NCBI GenBank assembly: GCA_964444345.1
Contig: CAYUGU010000001.1
Span: 6,861 to 70,860 of the forward strand
From: an uncultured Bacteroides sp.
GTDB taxonomy: Bacteria > Bacteroidota > Bacteroidia > Bacteroidales > Muribaculaceae
Direction: 5' to 3'
DNA length: 64,000 bases
Part shown: positions 222 to 42,246 of the stretch, one piece after another
How the letters are laid out: each line of letters opens with the position of its first letter
How positions within the stretch are numbered: position 1 is the first letter of the stretch
Position numbers and translations under genes: made by a program
Notes under the pieces: generated by a model
Database searches by the model: none
Told to the model about the DNA's origin: nothing
What the model saw: only the letters and a program-made list of their open reading frames with translations

Positions 222-702
222 GGGCGTGAAAACTGATTGAGTCGACGGTCGAGTCCTCGCCGTCGTCGTTGATTGAATAGACAACCCCGGCCTCGCGGGC
301 GCTTACGGGCCGCAGGAGTTGGGTGAGAAAACTGATGTAGCGATAGTCGTCGGAGGTCAGTTCGCGGACATAGGCCTCAGTGGCCTCCGGGGCCGAGTTC
401 AGGGCGTGGCGATAACATTTGAGGGCAAAGGCGGTGAACTCGTCTGATTTCTCGGAGTGTTCGCCTAGACGCACCATTGCGACGGCCAGGCCGCAAAGGC
501 GCTCAACTCGCATCGAGTCGACCACTCCCGAGCGGGCCGACATCAGTTCGTTAGCGTGGGCCATTGCAGCGTCAAAATTGCCGTTAGCCACCTGAGCGAC
601 AATCTCGTCGGCGGTCTTGTCGGGCGTATTTGCGGGCTTGCAGGCCCAGCAGAGGGCGGCGACAGCCACAAGGAAGATGAAGATAAGTTTTGGGTTAATC
701 AT
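208..702 (-). CDS. Hypothetical lipoprotein (helical, no recognised family)
   Basis: 164 aa. N-terminal signal peptide with a Cys-containing lipobox-like end (FLVAVAALCWAC). Coding-like composition, coupled to the downstream SUI1 gene. Confidence 0.6.
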   Translation of the reverse strand: MINPKLIFIFLVAVAALCWACKPANTPDKTADEIVAQVANGNFDAAMAHANELMSARSGVVDSMRVERLCGLAVAMVRLGEHSEKSDEFTAFALKCYRHALNSAPEATEAYVRELTSDDYRYISFLTQLLRPVSAREAGVVYSINDDGEDSTVDSISFHAHGIQ

Positions 703-706
703 AGCA

Positions 707-714
707 CAAAATTA
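707..714 (-). promoter_or_regulatory. Bacteroidetes -7 box TAATTTTG for ORF 208..702
   Basis: Plus strand reads CAAAATTA, which is TAATTTTG on the minus strand and matches the TAnnTTTG consensus. It lies only 4 nt upstream of the ATG (700-702), implying a leaderless or near-leaderless mRNA. Confidence 0.4.
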
Positions 715-750
715 GCGAAAATTCCGCTAACCGCCAAATTTTTCCTTGCC

Positions 751-799
751 GGTTTAGTGTTTATGGTTTATGGTTTAGTGTTTATGGTTTATGGTTATG
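751..799. repeat. Heptanucleotide tandem array, 6 units plus a partial unit: GGTTTAG TGTTTAT GGTTTAT x2 (21-nt higher-order unit)
   Basis: Direct reading: GGTTTAGTGTTTATGGTTTAT repeated twice, then GGTTATG. The last unit contains the stop codon (795-797) of the methyltransferase gene. Same unit family as the array at 63103-63228. Confidence 0.85.
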
Positions 800-1871
800 G
801 GATTGAGGTGAGGAAGAGGAGGAGGCGGCTGGTGGGGGCGGCGGTCAGGGCGAGGAGGCGGCGGGTGGAGGATTCGGTCGATTTGAGTCGTTTGGCGAGG
901 TCGGCGGCGGTTATGGGGAGATTTTTGACGGCTACGGAGGCTTGGATTTTTTCTTTGGCGAGTCGCTTGATTGTCGACGAACTGAATTCTTCGATGCGGT
1001 CGATGCGGTAGTTCTTGCCGGGGAAGTCGGGCCCGGGGTTGAGCCATAGGTGGGTGTCGGGGTGGAGTTTGCGGCCGGGGATGAGGGTCCAAGGGGCGGC
1101 TTTCATGACCGTGGGCCACGGTTCTCCGATTGTGTCGCCGAGGTTGATTTCGACGTCGTAGGGCGCGGGAGGAAGGAGGAGCGAGCGGCGGAACCGGAGG
1201 GTAGGGTGGCCGACGGTGTGGACGAGGATTTCGGGCTCGTCGACTGGACGGAGGCCTATTTCTGCGACTAATTCTTTACATTCGGCCGCAGTGCCCATCA
1301 CGTGGAGGCGCTCGGTCAGGGGAAGTTCGCGGAGCACACGGTCGATGTCGAGCATGGGCGACATCTTGACTATCACCTTCGGGGCGACGCGCTGAATTGC
1401 CGGCAGGAGTTCGACTATATCGGGTTGGCAATCGTGGAGTGAGAAGAGGCGGCGTCCGGAGGCGTCGCGCCGGGCGGGGTCGATAAAGGCCACGTCGAAG
1501 CGCTCCGTGCACTCCTTGAGCCAGAGGGTTGAGTCGGCACAGAGGGCCGTGACGTTGGTCAGGCCGAGGGCTGCGGCGTTGGGAAGAATGGCGTCGGCCA
1601 CGAGGGGGTCGCGGTCAATGGCCAGGACGGAGGAGGCGCGGCGGGCTATATGGAAGGCGTCGATTCCGAGGCCGCAGGTGAGGTCAACGACTTTGGCGCC
1701 TTCGGGGACCAGGAGGGCGTGGAGGTCGGCGAGGTCGTCGCCGGTCGATTGCTCGGCGCTCAGGGCCGTCGGGAACCGGAAGTCGGGAAATGACAATGTC
1801 GCCGCGAGTTTTTTGGCAACCCGCCGGCGACATTGGTTTTGAAAGTCTTGTTGGAAGTCTTTGCGGGCCAA
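795..1871 (-). CDS. Class I SAM-dependent methyltransferase (THUMP-like / RsmD-like family)
   Basis: 358 aa. SAM-binding motif VVDLTCGLGID followed by AIDRD and FIDPARR. No in-frame ATG in the first ~165 codons. A TTG at 1869-1871 directly abuts the prs stop codon (1872-1874), so the exact start is uncertain. Confidence 0.75.
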   Translation of the reverse strand: MARKDFQQDFQNQCRRRVAKKLAATLSFPDFRFPTALSAEQSTGDDLADLHALLVPEGAKVVDLTCGLGIDAFHIARRASSVLAIDRDPLVADAILPNAAALGLTNVTALCADSTLWLKECTERFDVAFIDPARRDASGRRLFSLHDCQPDIVELLPAIQRVAPKVIVKMSPMLDIDRVLRELPLTERLHVMGTAAECKELVAEIGLRPVDEPEILVHTVGHPTLRFRRSLLLPPAPYDVEINLGDTIGEPWPTVMKAAPWTLIPGRKLHPDTHLWLNPGPDFPGKNYRIDRIEEFSSSTIKRLAKEKIQASVAVKNLPITAADLAKRLKSTESSTRRLLALTAAPTSRLLLFLTSIP

Positions 1872-32766: not shown

Positions 32767-34530
32767 TTATACAGTGTACTGAATCAGAGGGGTAGGATTC
32801 AGATAGCCGATGTGGCCTGACTCCTTGCCTGAGTCGGCTGCGAGTTGAACATTGATAAGCGACGGGCGCTTGGAGGCGATTGCTTCGGTGAGGGCCTTTG
32901 AGAGTTCTTCGGGGGTCGATACGTAGTAAGCGTCGCCGCCGAAGGCTTCGGCCATCTTGTCGTAGCGGGCGTTGATGTCGAGGGTGGTAGGTGCGGGTTC
33001 GTCCGTGCCGCCGGGGTTAACGCCTACGCCGTTATAGATACCGCCGTTGTTGAAGATAACGACCGTGGCGGGGAGTTTGTAGCGGCAGATGGTTGCAAAT
33101 TCCATGCCTGAGAAGCCGAAAGCCGAGTCGCCTTCAACTGCTACGACGCTCTTGCCCGTAGCAACGGCGGCGCCGATAGTCGAGCCCATACCCATACCCA
33201 TGATTGACCATGAGGCGCAGTCAACGCGGTGGCGAGGAAGGGCCATATCGACGGTGTCGCGGGTATCGTCAAGGGTGTTGGCGCCCTCGTTGATGAGGAT
33301 TACGTCGGGGTTTGCTTCGAGGATAGGCTTGATGGCGCTCAAGGCAGTCCAGTGGTTCATCGGGCTGGCGGTTGAGGCTGCCTGAAGGCGTGCGGCAAAC
33401 TTCTTGTTCTTTTCGGCGCTTTCGGCCTGGAGGGCGGGTACCCAGGTGGGGTCGAAGGCGGGTTTATACTTGGTCAGTTCGGCAAGAATGGCTTTCAGCG
33501 ATTCGTTCATATCGCCTACGACAGGAGCGGCGACGGGAACGTTGCGGTCAATTTCGCGAGGCTCAACGTCGAGTTGAACAAACTTCACGTTCGGGTTCCA
33601 TTTACCCTTACCGAAGGAGAGCATCCAGTTGATTCGGGCGCCGATGACGATAACTACGTCGGCCTGCTCCATGATTGTCGAGCGGCAGGAGAGGGCGCTC
33701 AAATCGCCGTTGTCGGGCAATACGCCCTTGGCCATCGACATTGCCAGATAAGGAATCTTATAGGTGTCGCTCAACTGCTTGATGAGGTCTTCGGCCTGGG
33801 CCTGAGCGGCGCCTTTACCAATCAGGATTGCGGGCTTCTTGGCCGAGGCAATGGTCTGGGCGGCGCGGGCAACGGCGTCGGCGTTAGGTGCAACCTTTGA
33901 GTAGACGTCGACCGGGGTGAAGTAGAGTTTTTCGGCGTCTTCGCGGTTCATCACTTCGCCCAAGGCAGGAGTGGTCATATCAATATAAACGCCGCCGGGA
34001 CGTCCGCTGACTGCGGCGCGATAGGCGCGGGCAACTGCGGCCGGAATATCCTTGGCGTGGCTGCAACGGAAGGCGGCCTTCACGTAGGGGCGGGCAGCGT
34101 TCAACTGGTCAAGTTGCTCGTAGGTGCCCATATCCATATCGACCATCTGAGGGTCGGAGGCGCCTGAAATCTGAATCATAGGATAGCAGTTGACCGTAGC
34201 GTTGATCGTGGCGGTCAAGCCGTTGAGGAAGCCGAGCGACGAAACGGTCAGCAAGACGCCGGGCTTGCCGGTCAGATAGCCATGGGTGGCGGCTGCCATA
34301 CCGGCCTGCTGCTCAAAGCGGAAGCCATAGTAGTTCATACCGATTTTCTGCATCGCATAGGCTACTTCGGTTACGGGGATGCCGACAAGGCCGTATACGT
34401 CCATAAGGCCGAGACGGCGAAGCGATTCGGCGAGTATATACATTCCGGTTACCTGCTCCGGAAACTGAGGAGCGGCGGGAGTGGTTGTTGCGGCGGTTGC
34501 TGCTGCATTTGAGTTAGTTGTAGTACTCAT
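32767..34530 (-). CDS. oxc: Oxalyl-CoA decarboxylase (ThDP-dependent)
   Basis: 587 aa, ThDP-enzyme architecture, ThDP-binding motif GDSAFGFSGMEFATICRYKLPATVVIFNNGG. Adjacent to frc. Confidence 0.9.
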   Translation of the reverse strand: MSTTTNSNAAATAATTTPAAPQFPEQVTGMYILAESLRRLGLMDVYGLVGIPVTEVAYAMQKIGMNYYGFRFEQQAGMAAATHGYLTGKPGVLLTVSSLGFLNGLTATINATVNCYPMIQISGASDPQMVDMDMGTYEQLDQLNAARPYVKAAFRCSHAKDIPAAVARAYRAAVSGRPGGVYIDMTTPALGEVMNREDAEKLYFTPVDVYSKVAPNADAVARAAQTIASAKKPAILIGKGAAQAQAEDLIKQLSDTYKIPYLAMSMAKGVLPDNGDLSALSCRSTIMEQADVVIVIGARINWMLSFGKGKWNPNVKFVQLDVEPREIDRNVPVAAPVVGDMNESLKAILAELTKYKPAFDPTWVPALQAESAEKNKKFAARLQAASTASPMNHWTALSAIKPILEANPDVILINEGANTLDDTRDTVDMALPRHRVDCASWSIMGMGMGSTIGAAVATGKSVVAVEGDSAFGFSGMEFATICRYKLPATVVIFNNGGIYNGVGVNPGGTDEPAPTTLDINARYDKMAEAFGGDAYYVSTPEELSKALTEAIASKRPSLINVQLAADSGKESGHIGYLNPTPLIQYTV

Positions 34531-34564
34531 AGTGATGTTTTTTGAACGTGTGTTTTGTTAGAAA

Positions 34565-34623
34565 ATAAGAAAAAGAGGGGTGACCTGCGGGCAGCCATAT
34601 CGTTTACGGTCAGCCCGCAAGTC
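34565..34623 (-). terminator. Intra-operon hairpin (attenuator or partial terminator) between frc and oxc
   Basis: On the minus strand: GACTTGCGGGC-N20-GCCCGCAGGTC (11 bp including one G-U), then ACCCCTCTTTTTCTTATTTTC. Confidence 0.45.
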
Positions 34624-34642
34624 GCCGGAATGTTACGAGAGT

Positions 34643-35977
34643 TTATTTCTGAGCAGTAGTTGCTGCGGGGGCTGCTGCGGGAGCAACAGGAGCCGTAGTG
34701 CCGTTCTTGGCAAAGGAGTCAATCTCTTCCTGAGTGTAGCCCAGAGAGGTCAGAACCTCCGTGGTGTTTCCGCCCAGTTCAGGAGCAGGACCGTAGGTAG
34801 GCTGATAGTTCGAGAAGGTGAACGGGCAACCGACGGTTACGAACTCACCGATTTCGCCGCCCTGGTTAATGCGGACGAGGGTGTTGCCGTCATAGAGCGA
34901 TTCGTCGCTCATCATCTCCTTGGTCGACAGCACGGGACCTACGGGGACACCGGCCTTGCCGAGAATTTCGGTTACTTCAAACTTGGTCTTGTCGGCGGTC
35001 CACTGGCCAATGCGCTGATAAATCTGCTGTTTGTGGCGATCGCGGGCGTCGGCCGTGTTGAAGTCGGGGTTGGTCAGCCAATCCTGGAAGCCAACGGCGT
35101 TGCAGAAGAGTTCAAAGTCCTTGGCGCCACGCTGAAGCACGATGTAAACATAGTTGTTGGCATCGATTTCCGAGTCGAGGCCGCCGGCAGGCTTACACTT
35201 ATAGGTCCAGCCGAGCACGCCGCCACCTTCGATGTTGCCCGAACGGGGAACGCAATCACCGAACTTGCCGTCAGGATACTGCGGGAACTGGGTCAGATAA
35301 CCGATCTTGTCGAGGGTCAACTGGTCACGGGTCTTGATACGGCAGAGGTTCAAGCAGGCATTGTGCATCGACTGATAAACGTAGACGCCTTCGCCGGTCT
35401 TTTCACGCTGAACAACTGCGGCGAGCAGGCCGATAAGAAGGTGCATACCGGTGTTTGAGTCGCCAAGGGCTGCGCCGCTCTGCGTAGGAATGTTATATTC
35501 GCCGTCATACCAGCCGGTAGTCGAAGCGGCGGCTGCGGTAACCTGGGCGATAGGCTCATAGGCTTTCAAGTCCTTATACTTTGAGGAAACAGGGAAGCCC
35601 TTGATGGTACCATAAATACAGCGAGGGTTCAGGGCATGAACGGCTTCCCAACTGAAACCAAGTTTGTCCATTGCACCCGGGTGCAGGTTTTCAACGAAGA
35701 TATCACACTCCTTGATCAGTTTCGTAAGGATAGCCTTACCGTCAGGAGTCTTTGCGTCAAGAGTCAACGACTTCTTGTCGCTATTGAGTTGCAGGAAGTA
35801 GTAGCTGGGCAGGTCAGGATTAAACTGCAGTTCTTTACGCGTTGCGTCGCCAACGCCCGGACGTTCAATCTTGATTACGTCGGCGCCGAGCCAGGCTAAC
35901 ATCTGTGTGCAAGAAGGGCCGCTCTGGACTTCGGTGAAGTCAACAACTTTCAGGCCCTGAAGAGGTGCTGTATTCAT
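34643..35977 (-). CDS. frc: Formyl-CoA:oxalate CoA-transferase
   Basis: 444 aa. N-terminus LQGLKVVDFTEVQSGPSCTQMLAWLGADVIKIERPGVGDATR closely resembles Oxalobacter Frc (family III CoA-transferase). Confidence 0.9.
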   Translation of the reverse strand: MNTAPLQGLKVVDFTEVQSGPSCTQMLAWLGADVIKIERPGVGDATRKELQFNPDLPSYYFLQLNSDKKSLTLDAKTPDGKAILTKLIKECDIFVENLHPGAMDKLGFSWEAVHALNPRCIYGTIKGFPVSSKYKDLKAYEPIAQVTAAAASTTGWYDGEYNIPTQSGAALGDSNTGMHLLIGLLAAVVQREKTGEGVYVYQSMHNACLNLCRIKTRDQLTLDKIGYLTQFPQYPDGKFGDCVPRSGNIEGGGVLGWTYKCKPAGGLDSEIDANNYVYIVLQRGAKDFELFCNAVGFQDWLTNPDFNTADARDRHKQQIYQRIGQWTADKTKFEVTEILGKAGVPVGPVLSTKEMMSDESLYDGNTLVRINQGGEIGEFVTVGCPFTFSNYQPTYGPAPELGGNTTEVLTSLGYTQEEIDSFAKNGTTAPVAPAAAPAATTAQK

Positions 35978-36123
35978 AGTAAATACGTTTAAAAGTGGTT
36001 AAATAGTTTTTTTAGTTTTTGTGTTCGTTTGCAATAAAAACACCCCCGCCCCCAAAAAAGTTCCCTCCACCCCTGTTTTTTCTTATTTTAATTTGGAAAG
36101 TTGTTTATATTAGAAACTTTTCT

Positions 36124-36131
36124 TAACTTTG
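36124..36131 (+). promoter_or_regulatory. -7 box TAACTTTG for the DUF3791-DUF3990-DUF3791 cassette
   Basis: Matches TAnnTTTG, 17 nt upstream of the ATG at 36149. The track start at 36101 lies upstream of the box. Confidence 0.45.
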
Positions 36132-36148
36132 CGAATAAAATTTCAATT

Positions 36149-36397
36149 ATGACAACCAAGTTTGACCGGAAGCCGGCACAAAACGTATCTCCTGACATTA
36201 TTCATTATATAGTAATGAGTCTGGGAATGTTTGCACGGAAATTTAAACTTACTAATAGGGAGGCCTGCAATTATCTTGCACGCTTTAAAGGTTTACAATT
36301 TTCGATTGATAATTATGAGGCGGAACATCAGTTGTCGCTCAGCGAATGTGTTGACGATATGTATGCTGTATGTAAAAGAAACGGAGGCGACCTATGA
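36149..36397 (+). CDS. DUF3791-like small helical protein
   Basis: 82 aa (MTTKFDRKPAQNVSPDIIHYIVMSLGMFARKFKLTNREACNYL...). The stop overlaps the next start (CTATGAA). Confidence 0.65.
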   Translation: MTTKFDRKPAQNVSPDIIHYIVMSLGMFARKFKLTNREACNYLARFKGLQFSIDNYEAEHQLSLSECVDDMYAVCKRNGGDL

Positions 36398-36867
36398 AGT
36401 TATACCATGGCTCAAACTGTCTGATTGACGTAATCGACCTATCTTTTGCCAAGAAATATAAAGACTTTGGCCCCGGATTCTATACAACTCATCTTCCGGA
36501 ACAGGCCCTCTTTTGGTCACGTCGAATCGCTGAGCGTTTTGGTGGTTTGCCGACCGTAACAGAGTTTGAATTTGATCTTGATACGGCGATTGACGACGGA
36601 TTGAAGATAAAGGTTTTTGAGCATCCCGATAGGGAGTGGGCTTTGTTTGTGATGGCCAATCGGAGACAGGACGGAGAGGAGTTCAAACACGACTACGACA
36701 TAGTAATAGGTCCGGTAGCCGACGATAAGATGGCTCGATTATTCGGACTTTATGATTTAGAGATTATCGATTTGGATGCGGTTGTTGCCGGATTGGTCTA
36801 TAAGGATTTAAATTCGCAGTATTTCTTTGCTACGGAGCGTTCTCTCAAATATATTAAACGTCTATGA
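36394..36867 (+). CDS. DUF3990-like protein (possible ADP-ribosyltransferase-fold)
   Basis: 157 aa. MKLYHGSNCLIDVIDLSFAKKYKDFGPGFYTTHLPEQALFW... The family assignment is from memory of the DUF3990 N-terminal YHGS / GxGFY pattern. Confidence 0.72.
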   Translation: MKLYHGSNCLIDVIDLSFAKKYKDFGPGFYTTHLPEQALFWSRRIAERFGGLPTVTEFEFDLDTAIDDGLKIKVFEHPDREWALFVMANRRQDGEEFKHDYDIVIGPVADDKMARLFGLYDLEIIDLDAVVAGLVYKDLNSQYFFATERSLKYIKRL

Positions 36868-37094
36868 ACAATGCGGAAAGCACCTTTACCTTTTTAGTGG
36901 AATATATCACTTCAAAGGTGGTTGAATGGCTTATTCGAGATAAAAATATGAGCCTTGAGGAGGCTTTGGTCCTTTTCCATAATTCTGAGACATTCGGGAT
37001 TTTAAGTAATCCGGAAACGGATATGTATATAGAAAGTCCTGCTTATGTCTACGAAATTCTAAAAGGAGAGTTGCGTCGAGGTTCAATCCGGTAG
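36864..37094 (+). CDS. DUF3791-like small helical protein (second copy)
   Basis: 76 aa (MNNAESTFTFLVEYITSKVVEWLIRDKNMSLEEALVLFHNSETF...). The start overlaps the previous stop (CTATGAA). The 3' end overlaps the convergent GT2 gene by 12 nt. Confidence 0.65.
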   Translation: MNNAESTFTFLVEYITSKVVEWLIRDKNMSLEEALVLFHNSETFGILSNPETDMYIESPAYVYEILKGELRRGSIR

Positions 37095-38084
37095 AGCGGG
37101 AATTTGCGAGAAGCGGCGGCGCCCCAGGAGGTAGTAGGCCACGAGGATGTTCGGGCGCCCGTTCAGCAGATTCTCGCGAGCGTTGGCCAAGCGCGCTTCC
37201 GGAGCCATTGAACGATAGTCATTGTGGGCTTTTAAAATCGCTTTGGCGTCGGCAAAGTTGAAGGTCAGCACTGATTTAAGCCAAGCAATGGTGTCGAGCA
37301 GGCGGCGGCGTATGAGCGCTTTCTTGCGGTCGGCTTCCGGCAGGTTCTTATGAAGCAGCAGCAGGTTGTTGCGGAAATTGAGATAGGTTTTTCTCGGATT
37401 GCCCATAGGGAGCGAACCGCCCCCGAGATGCATGACTTCCGCGTCCGGACATACCATTACCTTAAATCCGGCAAGGCGTATACGCCAGCAGAGGTCTATT
37501 TCCTCCATATGCGCGAAAAAGGATTCGTCGAGCCCGCCAACCTTCTTATAAAGGTCGGTGCGGACCATAAGAGCGGCTCCAGTGGCCCAGTCAACTTCAA
37601 GGGGGGCTTGATATTGTCCGTTGTCGGTTTCGACCGTACCGAAAATGCGTCCGCGGCAAAAGGGATAGCCGTTGCGGTCAAGGAAGCCGCCACACGCCCC
37701 GGCATATTCAAAGCGCTCAGGGTTATGCCAACTGAGAATTTTTGGCTGGCAGGCGCCACACTCCGGGTGGCTCTCCATAAACTCCAGCAGCGAAGTGTCC
37801 CAACCCTTGCGCGGGGCGACGTCGGAGTTCAGAAGAACGGTATATTTCGATTCAATCTCTTCGAGGGCAAGGTTATATCCGCCGGCAAAACCATGGTTTT
37901 CATCAAAGCGGATAAGGGGCAAACCGAGCCAGCGCACGTAGTCACATGAGCCGTCGGTCGACCCGTTGTCGGCAACGATTACCTCGCTGATTTCCAGGTC
38001 GGTGGCCTCCAGAACGCGCGGAAGAAACTCCTTCAGGAGGTTAATGCCGTTCCAATTGAGAATAACTACGGAAATAGGTTTCAT
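37083..38084 (-). CDS. Glycosyltransferase family 2
   Basis: 333 aa. SVVILNWNG...VADNGSTDGS...LLNSDV, a GT-A fold pattern. Confidence 0.85.
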   Translation of the reverse strand: MKPISVVILNWNGINLLKEFLPRVLEATDLEISEVIVADNGSTDGSCDYVRWLGLPLIRFDENHGFAGGYNLALEEIESKYTVLLNSDVAPRKGWDTSLLEFMESHPECGACQPKILSWHNPERFEYAGACGGFLDRNGYPFCRGRIFGTVETDNGQYQAPLEVDWATGAALMVRTDLYKKVGGLDESFFAHMEEIDLCWRIRLAGFKVMVCPDAEVMHLGGGSLPMGNPRKTYLNFRNNLLLLHKNLPEADRKKALIRRRLLDTIAWLKSVLTFNFADAKAILKAHNDYRSMAPEARLANARENLLNGRPNILVAYYLLGRRRFSQIPALPD

Positions 38085-41478: not shown

Positions 41479-41880
41479 TTATTGCTGATATATTAAGTTC
41501 TCAATCTTACCAAGGAGCGCTTCAACTTTGGGCATAATAGGGAGAATATCCTCTTCTTCCCAATCGAAAAGGTCGTCATAATCGCCCGATTGCCGCATAG
41601 TAAAAAGCGTTCGATATAGGCTGCCTTCTTCTTTTGTCAATACCCCGGTAGCGATAAAATTACGGCTGAATATTCCAAAAGTTCCATTATGAGTTTTAGA
41701 CGTCTCTCCTTGTTTTAGATTGATTGCTAAAACCATATAAAACGTTGCGTAATAAAGACGATTAGCAACCAAACTCCAGTTCCCTAATGATGCATTATCC
41801 GAGGCTTCTTTGAACGTATTGTGGGCTTTCTCTACGCGATATGCAATAACAGCCTGTTTGTCATCGTAAGATATTGTCAT
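41479..41880 (-). CDS. HEPN domain protein (toxin-like partner of the MNT)
   Basis: 133 aa, four-helix pattern (…NWSLVANRLYYATFYMVLAINL…, …TMRQSGDYDD…). Lies 24 nt downstream of a minimal nucleotidyltransferase gene. AT-rich. Confidence 0.75.
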   Translation of the reverse strand: MTISYDDKQAVIAYRVEKAHNTFKEASDNASLGNWSLVANRLYYATFYMVLAINLKQGETSKTHNGTFGIFSRNFIATGVLTKEEGSLYRTLFTMRQSGDYDDLFDWEEEDILPIMPKVEALLGKIENLIYQQ

Positions 41881-41904
41881 AATTTAAATTGTAGAGTTAT
41901 GGAC

Positions 41905-42246
41905 TTATTTCTGCAGGAGAATAAGTTTTTCGTTCTCAACGCTTTGATAGAAAGGAAGGAAACTTCGTTTTAGCCATCCTGCGAACGAGTAAAGCCGAGG
42001 AGTTACAATTTCATTAAAAGTCAACCCGAGATCGGAAAAGGGCCAGGCAAACTTATCCCATAAATGCAGCGGAATCCGCTCTTCGCCGGGGATTAGAATA
42101 TGTAAATCCCAATCAGAGTCCGGACGCGCGTCGCCTCGCGCGCGCGAACCATACAAAGATAACCGTGAGCCGGGAGGAAGAATCTCGGCTGCAGTCGCTT
42201 TAATGGCGTCTAATAAGGCTTTATGATTAGTAAGACTTGGCATCAT
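41905..42246 (-). CDS. Minimal nucleotidyltransferase (MNT, antitoxin-like)
   Basis: 113 aa, Pol-beta NTase motif LYGSRARGDARPDSDWDLHIL (GS...DxD). Confidence 0.8.
   Translation of the reverse strand: MMPSLTNHKALLDAIKATAAEILPPGSRLSLYGSRARGDARPDSDWDLHILIPGEERIPLHLWDKFAWPFSDLGLTFNEIVTPRLYSFAGWLKRSFLPFYQSVENEKLILLQK

Follow-up and report, generated by a model that had tools for sequence, protein, structure and literature searches.

A three-gene DUF3791-DUF3990 cassette in a Muribaculaceae genome as a candidate mobile toxin-antitoxin module with a predicted ADP-ribosyltransferase-fold effector

Gene organization of the cassette

Three short open reading frames (ORFs), here called A, B and C, lie contiguously on one strand of a 64,000-nucleotide stretch of DNA from an uncultured Bacteroides sp. 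of the family Muribaculaceae (GenBank assembly GCA_964444345.1, contig CAYUGU010000001.1, positions 6,861 to 70,860 of the forward strand), referred to below as the window. Read from the sequence, they encode proteins of 82, 157 and 76 amino acids (aa) and form a compact cassette whose middle product is a predicted ADP-ribosyltransferase (ART)-fold protein. Its features, numbered from the first letter of the window, are the following:

36097-36148, plus strand: conserved promoter region, the 5' edge of the DNA common to other loci
36100-36117, plus strand: decayed copy, GTTGTTTATATTAGAAAC, of an operator-like 18-bp palindrome with the consensus GTTKCYAATATTRGAAAC
36124-36131, plus strand: Bacteroidetes-type -7 promoter box, TAACTTTG, seen in the sequence
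36149-36397, plus strand: gene A, 82 aa, with its ATG at 36149
36164-36169, plus strand: junction (GAC/CGG) of an in-frame deletion of the helix-turn-helix (HTH) region of A, about 58 codons gone, from comparison with the related locus L053
36394-36867, plus strand: gene B, 157 aa, DUF3990, predicted ART-fold effector
36406-36408, 36481-36483 and 36697-36699, plus strand: codons of His5, Tyr30 and Asp102 of B, candidate catalytic residues from conservation and the AlphaFold2 (AF2) model
36864-37094, plus strand: gene C, 76 aa, divergent DUF3791-like paralogue

An earlier note on this DNA, made from the letters alone, had described three same-strand ORFs of these lengths joined by CTATGAA overlaps, and the sequence bears this out: the A/B and B/C junctions are both ATGA overlaps (36394-36397 and 36864-36867) within CTATGAA. 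The -7 box that it reported is indeed at 36124-36131. As the start of the block, position 36124 holds for the promoter box and not for a gene, the ATG of A being at 36149, which is the only coordinate in need of correction. The block is also richer in AT than its surroundings, as had been seen (GC 0.415 against 0.56 on both flanks), and the last 12 nt of C (37083-37094) do overlap the 3' end of the convergent glycosyltransferase family 2 (GT2) gene (37083-38084, minus strand).

Protein B and its predicted ADP-ribosyltransferase fold

The assignment of the middle protein to DUF3990 (PF13151) in the earlier note was correct: B matches the family with 148.5 bits (E 1.6e-43; gathering score 32.2 bits) over residues 1-155, against profile positions 1-151/152. 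DUF3990 is already listed in the ART clan of Pfam (PMC7955679). The AF2 model of B is of high quality (pLDDT 94.1, pTM 0.88), and its top Foldseek matches in the PDB are all ART-fold proteins, namely a RES toxin, ParT, tankyrases, diphtheria toxin, exotoxin A and KptA. The best of them is the RES toxin of the Pseudomonas putida Xre-RES pair (9r35_A; E 3e-3, template modelling (TM) score 0.49/0.52), with ParT (6d0i) next. As modelled, B has an ART fold.

Compared with models of viral proteins, B is closest to A0A0H3UZB3, an unnamed protein with 30% identity (E 1.6e-13) that is probably a direct homologue. The next matches in this library are ART-PolyVal domains (E 1.5e-6, TM 0.54-0.57). Several homologues of B show sub-threshold matches to ART-PolyVal (PF18760), and B of the window has none in a Pfam search. 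Searches of the PDB sequences with B, by sequence and by profile, returned nothing useful, NCBIfam holds no model for A, B or C, and in PHROGs there is only a weak match of B to phrog_4700 (E 8e-6). Membership of B in the DarT or RES families was considered and rejected, as Pfam gives a match to neither.

Residue conservation was assessed in a diverse alignment of 81 sequences reaching down to about 32% identity. The positions conserved in the family are H5, G6, D24, F25, G26, G28, F29, Y30, A38, F75, W82, F85, R90, D102, G106, A109, D111, Q142 and F145. His5, kept in at least 90% of the sequences, lies in the motif YHGS on strand 1 (residues 2-7); Tyr30, which is invariant, lies in GxGFYT on strand 2 (residues 29-32); and Asp102, also invariant, directly precedes the strand formed by residues 103-106 (IVIG). 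The reading of His5 and Tyr30 as the H and Y elements of an ART, put forward in the earlier note, is thus upheld by conservation and by a model that matches ART folds only. The corresponding motifs of PARP enzymes are HGS, GxGxYFA and E-YIVY. The motifs of B mirror these, which makes His5, Tyr30 and Asp102 a likely H-Y-D catalytic triad, as judged from the alignment and the model. For the third acidic residue that the earlier note had sought, the invariant Asp102 before IVIG is available, and the PARP motif suggests it as the putative equivalent of PARP1 Glu988.

Protein A and the loss of its helix-turn-helix

Protein A belongs to DUF3791 (PF12668), with 53.6 bits (E 2.3e-14; gathering score 25 bits) over residues 20-78. 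Its relatives are usually longer, with 141-145 residues (mostly 142), and consist of an N-terminal HTH_3 domain of the Xre type followed by DUF3791. Of 57 related loci, about 50 have this form, as do most of the 120 homologues listed from the database; a full-length relative at L001 (5576-6001), for instance, matches HTH_3 with E 3e-17 and DUF3791 with E 3e-16. Protein A of the window keeps the first six codons (MTTKFD) and then passes straight to the linker that precedes DUF3791. At the DNA level, the window reads ATGACAACCAAGTTTGAC-CGGAAGCCG, while L053 reads ATGGCAAACAAGTTTGAC, then about 174 nt coding for the HTH, then GATCTGAAGCCG; with the break marked by a slash, the window junction is AAGTTTGAC/CGGAAGCCG, and the same flanks in L053 enclose the HTH-coding DNA. 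By this comparison, A of the window is an HTH-deleted form, produced by a clean in-frame deletion that kept the start codon and the whole DUF3791 domain. The earlier note missed both the HTH that A usually carries and its loss in this copy.

Elsewhere, A proteins without the HTH are common and widespread, P0476 being present on 428 contigs, for instance, and P0497 on 171, and the trios borne by plasmids and phages mostly have a short A. In the AF2 model of A (pLDDT 85), residues 1-9, the scar of the deletion, are disordered, and helices in five DSSP segments extend over residues 15-77. We considered a kinship of DUF3791 with the toxin-binding domain of the Xre/MbcA/ParS kind, for which the structural search gave no support (best Foldseek E 2.8, TM at most 0.4). 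On the evidence of the model, DUF3791 is a domain with no solved relative and is not linkable to known antitoxin domains. One histidine (H60 in A) is invariant across diverse DUF3791 sequences; the matching position in C of the window is Tyr55.

A different A protein is encoded at L062 (3555-4001), on the Phocaeicola vulgatus plasmid pMG01-07_1. It has 149 residues, and its N-terminal ~85 residues match neither an HTH nor any other Pfam family, so that another N-terminal domain may be fused to DUF3791 there.

Protein C as a distant paralogue of A

The earlier note had assigned both outer proteins to DUF3791. This holds for A, and for C it fails at the Pfam level and stands at the level of the superfamily. 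Protein C has no Pfam match, with none to DUF3791 even at E values up to 1; none of the 120 homologues of C listed carries a Pfam domain, and a C-like protein of Clostridium botulinum reaches only 15.1 bits (E 0.023) against DUF3791. When diverse alignments of A and C were compared with hhalign, however, the two aligned with a probability of 92.6% (E 4.5e-7) over 62 columns, residues 16-77 of A being paired with residues 11-72 of C; control comparisons against B gave 0.4-0.6%. The A-C value rose from 1% with shallow alignments to 74% and then to 92.6% once fused domains and homologues from viral contigs had been added. On this alignment, C is a divergent paralogue of the DUF3791 domain, a relative at superfamily level and not a member of the Pfam family.

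Promoter and operator-like palindrome

By blastn, the promoter region (36097-36148) shares 77-89% identity with the DNA that immediately precedes gene A in L007, L053 and L056; upstream of 36097, blastn against the related loci shows no further similarity. The -7 box is an established element of Bacteroides promoters, and TAnnTTTG stands at the matching place, 6 nt past the palindrome, in most related loci. The 18-bp palindrome GTTKCYAATATTRGAAAC is common to the HTH-bearing loci upstream of A and is perfect in L033 and L041. Compared with the intact form of the box, GTTTCTAATATTAGAAAC, the window copy GTTGTTTATATTAGAAAC is decayed, with two mismatches to the consensus, both in the left half-site. 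It is the sole such site in the window, where 0.12 would be expected by chance. Because the palindrome ends 6 nt before the -7 box, it is placed between the -33 and -7 elements.

With up to three mismatches, the palindrome is found in 48 of 50 HTH-plus loci and in 2 of 7 HTH-minus loci, a covariation that is suggestive and not a statistical proof since the loci are interrelated. With HTH_3 in the first gene and a palindrome in the promoter, the family is laid out, as judged from sequence, like a type II toxin-antitoxin operon that represses itself, the palindrome being its putative operator.

Distribution and mobility

A genome scan yielded 60 loci from other genomes, nearly all of them Muribaculaceae metagenome-assembled genomes (MAGs), of which 58 are complete. 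The arrangement of the three genes is far beyond chance, as the order A-B-C is the same in all 58 complete loci. Clustering of all the flanking ORFs left A, B and C as the only genes common to the loci, every other cluster occurring in three loci at most. The 144 neighbour proteins carry 181 Pfam families, none of them in more than three proteins, and no integrase or transposase recurs beside the trio. Across the loci, GC averages 0.44 in the trio and 0.51 in its flanks, the trio being low in GC at most of them. The MtaB-GT2 synteny of the window is found in 80 loci, none of which carries the trio at that place. A metagenome scan with the GT2 protein gave only relatives of at most 62% identity, all lacking the trio and too distant to define the end-points of the insertion.

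Among the 144 neighbours, there are two defence matches each for hsdS, Fic, WYL and PDC-S04, and an enrichment of the Muribaculaceae copies in defence islands, for which the earlier note had suggested a survey, was accordingly rejected. From the sharing of A, B and C only, the scarcity of defence neighbours, the low GC and the 80 MtaB-GT2 loci without the trio, we conclude that the trio is a solitary mobile islet, neither a piece of a conserved operon nor, in Muribaculaceae, a resident of defence islands. The earlier view of a horizontally acquired islet agrees with these data and with the presence of the module on plasmids and phage-like contigs; neighbours differ in nearly every species, and there are almost as many genomic contexts as species.

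Homologues of B occur on 88 plasmids. A 7.7-kb mobilisable Phocaeicola plasmid consists essentially of rep, mob and the trio, and on the 17.5-kb C. botulinum plasmid pCLI the trio adjoins the gene of the replication protein. A type I restriction-modification (RM) operon of the Moraxella osloensis plasmid NZ_CP069435.1 (L064, 4208-8203) contains the module, ordered B-C-A, between hsdM and two hsdS genes; the product of the middle gene there is a hypothetical protein of 83 aa, and the gene of a small HTH regulator stands in front. In IMG/VR, 109 contigs carry relatives. The architectures among 80 loci of this set (ABC in 27, ABCC in 16, BC in 15, BCA in 7 and B alone in 9) indicate that B-C is the most constant pair, C coming directly after B in most of the 80, and that the position of A is variable. 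A single B protein can be present on hundreds of gut contigs, and a survey of rumen MAGs counted PDC-M13, the PADLOC candidate system that the trio matches, 3,324 times.

Fusions between the three proteins recur in several lineages, in operon order. In the B-C fusions (P0157, P0259, P0217, P0189, P0191, P0140, P0180, P0159, P0145, P0178 and P0206) the C-like domain is C-terminal, and in the A-B fusions (P0190, P0205, P0218 and P0222) the DUF3791-like domain is N-terminal to DUF3990. In Serratia and Enterobacter, DUF3990 is an exchangeable C-terminal toxin tip of the Rhs proteins of type VI secretion systems. Regarding selection, the number of nonsynonymous substitutions per site (dN) is 0.16-0.27 while the synonymous one (dS) is saturated, which favours purifying selection, although at this saturation dN/dS is not properly computable.

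Several other arrangements were seen. P0213 (329 aa) has a metallophosphatase ahead of a partial DUF3990. Some genomes have two trios within 4 kb; in L024 (1681-2632 and 5681-6698) identity is only 40-49% for the second copy, and the copy nearer to the query has an A of 107 aa that looks disrupted. In L031, a second B (382-807, minus strand; 32% identical) lies between two small ORFs on the other strand. Geobacillus virus E3, with a genome of 141 kb, encodes a stand-alone DUF3990 homologue, gp30 (L145, 2468-3076; 202 aa, about 30% identity), two genes downstream of an integrase-like gene and, by profile searches, with no A- or C-like partner adjoining.

A proposed mechanism and its alternatives

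Taken globally, these data lead us to a model that we regard as probable on balance: the trio would be a self-contained, mobile, tripartite toxin-antitoxin or abortive-infection module with B as its ART-fold toxin, corresponding to the PADLOC candidate PDC-M13. In this respect the earlier note was sound in its central idea, that of an acquired islet encoding an ART-fold effector and two small partners, which repeats what the Pfam clan and PADLOC already imply. The model builds on the order and coupling of the genes, the families and conserved residues of the proteins, the fold of B as an ART, the association of HTH and operator, the mobility of the module and its fusions. To these it adds the assumptions that B uses NAD and is toxic and that A and/or C neutralise it, together with a trigger and a target.

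Mechanistically, the single Bacteroidetes promoter would give one A-B-C transcript, and the two ATGA overlaps would couple the translation of the three genes, so that A, B and C would be made together. B would be a small H-Y-[D/E] ART enzyme that binds NAD+ through the site formed by His5, Tyr30 and Asp102 and, once active, stops growth either by transferring ADP-ribose onto a nucleic acid or protein that the cell cannot do without or by destroying NAD+. A and C, as distant paralogues of a small helical DUF3791-like domain, would bind B and hold it inactive until a trigger, e.g. phage infection or loss of the element, sets it free. In the relatives, the Xre-type HTH of A would bind the palindrome between -33 and -7 and repress the operon. 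With the HTH deleted and the operator decaying, the window copy would probably be expressed constitutively and be otherwise intact.

Three further lines of comparison speak for the model. The use of DUF3990 as an Rhs tip suggests, by analogy, that a B-type domain is a toxin elsewhere. The A-B and B-C fusions, together with the A-C paralogy, point to a physical association of the three proteins. Finally, the matches of the trio to the A, B and C models of PDC-M13 and the Moraxella operon, with B-C-A between hsdM and hsdS, suggest a link to defence.

Several observations weigh against the proposed model. The PDB matches of B have weak E-values, the best being 3e-3 with a TM of about 0.5, and the assignment of Asp102, made from topology and the PARP motifs, is tentative. 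The model of A has no credible Foldseek match in the PDB to an antitoxin or to any other fold, its best hit being at E 2.8 with TM at most 0.4, and Pfam finds no Xre/MbcA/ParS toxin-binding domain in A of the window or in its relatives. The Muribaculaceae copies have ordinary housekeeping genes, and not defence islands, as neighbours. Because the covariation of HTH and operator was counted among related sequences, its cases are not independent of one another. A protein in which B is stably fused to A or C could be a single multi-domain enzyme as easily as a toxin with a cis-inhibitor. In the literature we found no experiment on any member of the families, and the PDC systems are explicitly untested.

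We consider the best-placed alternative rather unlikely: A, B and C would be subunits of one non-toxic ADP-ribosyltransferase, targeted or regulated by the DUF3791-like proteins, with no relation of toxin and antidote. Such an enzyme could serve the establishment of mobile elements or anti-restriction, in the manner of the ART domains of phage and plasmid polyvalent proteins, or carry out a Tpt1-like reaction on RNA ends. Besides the A-B and B-C fusions in several lineages, with the operon order preserved, it would accommodate the ART-PolyVal domains as the nearest viral structural matches after A0A0H3UZB3 (and the sub-threshold ART-PolyVal matches of some homologues), the position of the trio next to replication genes on small plasmids, and a DUF3791 fold that resembles no antitoxin. 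It sits less well with the service of DUF3990 as an Rhs toxin tip, with a module lying inside a Moraxella type I RM operon, and with an HTH-bearing first gene that has an operator in its own promoter, which is the standard toxin-antitoxin layout. The chromosomal copies, scattered, solitary, low in GC and in unrelated contexts, likewise suggest a selfish module over a pathway enzyme.

A sub-variant of the toxin-antitoxin model, improbable in our view, retains the toxin and changes its chemistry, B being a glycohydrolase or phosphorylase that degrades NAD+ as RES and MbcT do, with growth arrest through NAD+ depletion. The best solved structural match of B is the RES toxin 9r35_A (E 3e-3), RES-Xre toxins degrade NAD+ (PMC6436930), and the layout is the same, the gene of an HTH antitoxin preceding that of the toxin. 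However, B has the YHGS and GxGFYT motifs of transferases of the PARP and diphtheria-toxin type, not the R-E-S signature, Pfam gives no RES match, and the comparable matches to ParT, tankyrase and diphtheria toxin are to true transferases; the present data do not separate the two activities.

That the window copy is a non-functional remnant on its way to pseudogenisation is very improbable: the HTH is deleted, two operator positions are mutated and the exact window proteins are found on only one or two contigs, but the three ORFs, both ATGA couplings and the -7 box are preserved, B retains every family-conserved residue, the deletion is exactly in frame with the start codon and the whole DUF3791 domain kept, dN is low, and HTH-less A proteins are common (P0476 and P0497, on 428 and 171 contigs) and mostly the rule in plasmid and phage trios.

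A bolder form of the toxin model is also conceivable, although we would not expect it to hold. The cassette could represent a new type of abortive infection, very abundant in gut Bacteroidales and rumen microbes, in which a compact H-Y-D ADP-ribosyltransferase is checked by two paralogous DUF3791-like partners with a small helical fold not seen before. These would act as phage sensors or as inhibitors in cis or trans, not as labile antitoxins, and the freed enzyme would ADP-ribosylate nucleic acid. The invariant histidine of A, or the tyrosine of C, might plug the NAD+ pocket of B.

Surroundings of the cassette in the window

The neighbours of the trio are a CoA-transferase III (frc-like) gene, a thiamine pyrophosphate-dependent (oxc-like) enzyme gene, the GT2 gene and a radical S-adenosylmethionine gene of the MiaB type, which confirms the frc and GT2 genes named as flanks in the earlier note. 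The DNA shared with other loci by blastn comprises 36097-36166 (promoter and start) and 36185-37090, and these limits give the extent of the module. Direct or inverted flanking repeats, target duplications and credible terminators were sought at the ends of the cassette, and none bound it. The cassette is an ordinary accessory islet with no bearing on the adjacent oxalate or glycosyltransferase genes.

At 37083-37094, the stop-proximal nucleotides of C double as code for the final residues of the convergent GT2 protein. Because the last 12 nt of C also encode the end of GT2, the C-terminus of the latter may have been remodelled by insertion of the cassette; alignments of GT2 relatives with the window protein stop at residue 328-333. 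Unusual low-complexity tails rich in Ala, Thr and Pro mark the two genes of oxalate catabolism (32767-35977, minus strand): MSTTTNSNAAATAATTTPAAP at the N-terminus of Oxc (oxc-like, 587 aa) and TTAPVAPAAAPAATTAQK at the C-terminus of Frc (frc-like, 444 aa).

A second low-GC islet (GC 0.38-0.44) lies 4.4 kb from the trio (41479-42246, minus strand). A protein of 133 aa with a HEPN domain (PF05168, E 1.6e-10) is encoded there beside a minimal nucleotidyltransferase (MNT) of 113 aa (PF01909, E 1.5e-6) with the motif GSRARGD...SDWDL; the two are a HEPN/MNT toxin-antitoxin-like pair, flanked by a GH20-like gene and a lipoprotein-like ORF.

Comparison with known systems

The closest catalogued system is PDC-M13 of PADLOC, whose models match all three proteins of the window (PDC-M13A with A, E 2.5e-21; PDC-M13B with B, E 1e-46; PDC-M13C with C, E 8.4e-20). 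The PDC set comprises 145 candidates, untested, predicted from genes embedded in BREX, DISARM and type I RM loci (Payne et al., bioRxiv 10.1101/2024.01.29.577857), and the Moraxella arrangement hsdM-DUF3990-x-DUF3791-hsdS is the very embedding that defined them. The catalogue entry was made through this "guilt by embedding", whereas the copy in the window lies outside any defence system; its A also lacks the HTH, unlike most Muribaculaceae copies.

With Xre-RES, MbcTA and ParST, the trio shares an ART-related toxin fold (the RES toxin and ParT being the best PDB matches of B), a first gene that in the relatives joins an Xre-type HTH to a small C-terminal domain, and a palindromic operator-like box in the promoter; DNA binding by the P. 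putida Xre-RES is described in PMC12204516. In contrast, B is a DUF3990 protein with H-Y-D-type motifs and not a RES domain, its partner is DUF3791, with neither sequence nor fold match to the Xre/MbcA/ParS domain, a third gene is present, and the window copy has no HTH. Pfam finds neither the RES toxin nor the Xre/MbcA/ParS C-terminal domain in the trio, so that the similarity of B to RES is at the fold level only. A type II toxin-antitoxin system has a DNA-binding antitoxin with its operator; in the window, the HTH of A is deleted and the operator has two mismatches.

DarTG pairs an ART toxin that ADP-ribosylates single-stranded DNA with a macrodomain antitoxin. B would resemble DarT as a small toxin of the H-Y-E clade of ARTs within a mobile toxin-antitoxin or defence module, but it has no Pfam match to DarT (DUF4433), none of A, B and C has a macrodomain or a recognisable ADP-ribose hydrolase, and the partners are small and helical. 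CmdTAC is a tripartite toxin-antitoxin-chaperone system with the ART-type toxin CmdT, and in CapRel a fused antitoxin domain is the phage sensor. Compared by description, the trio shares with CmdTAC three presumably co-transcribed genes and, in B, a putative ART-type toxin, and its toxin-partner fusions recall CapRel; it differs from CmdTAC in lacking a SecB-like chaperone and in having two partners that are paralogous.

The Rhs tips of Serratia (Rhs5) and Enterobacter (RhsA) carry the same DUF3990 domain in the position of an exchangeable toxin, followed by a small presumed immunity gene, while B is a stand-alone protein of 157 aa with no Rhs/PAAR delivery part. ART-PolyVal domains (PF18760), which belong to the polyvalent proteins of phages and conjugative elements, are the nearest named structural neighbours of B in the viral library, but they form part of giant proteins with many domains and are presumed to work on behalf of the invader and not of the host.

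By analogy, then, the trio resembles Xre-RES/ParST, DarTG and CmdTAC in its presumed working and lies outside each of these systems by the features that define them. DUF3990, DUF3791 and PDC-M13 were already catalogued, none of them characterised. The present analysis adds that the family has an HTH and operator architecture which the window copy has lost, that A and C are paralogues, that fusions occur, that B-C is a constant core and that the module is scattered over genomes, plasmids and phage-like contigs. The cassette can be tested directly now, through H5, Y30 and D102, through the defined operator GTTKCYAATATTRGAAAC and through natural variants with and without the HTH, and the natural A-B and B-C fusions indicate which of the proteins are in contact. 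One more ART toxin module will hardly surprise the specialist, yet this one is abundant in gut and rumen Bacteroidales and has a DUF3791-like partner fold with no solved relative. If the model is true, a very common cassette would join DarTG, ParST/Xre-RES and CmdTAC as a toxin or immunity module based on ADP-ribosylation.

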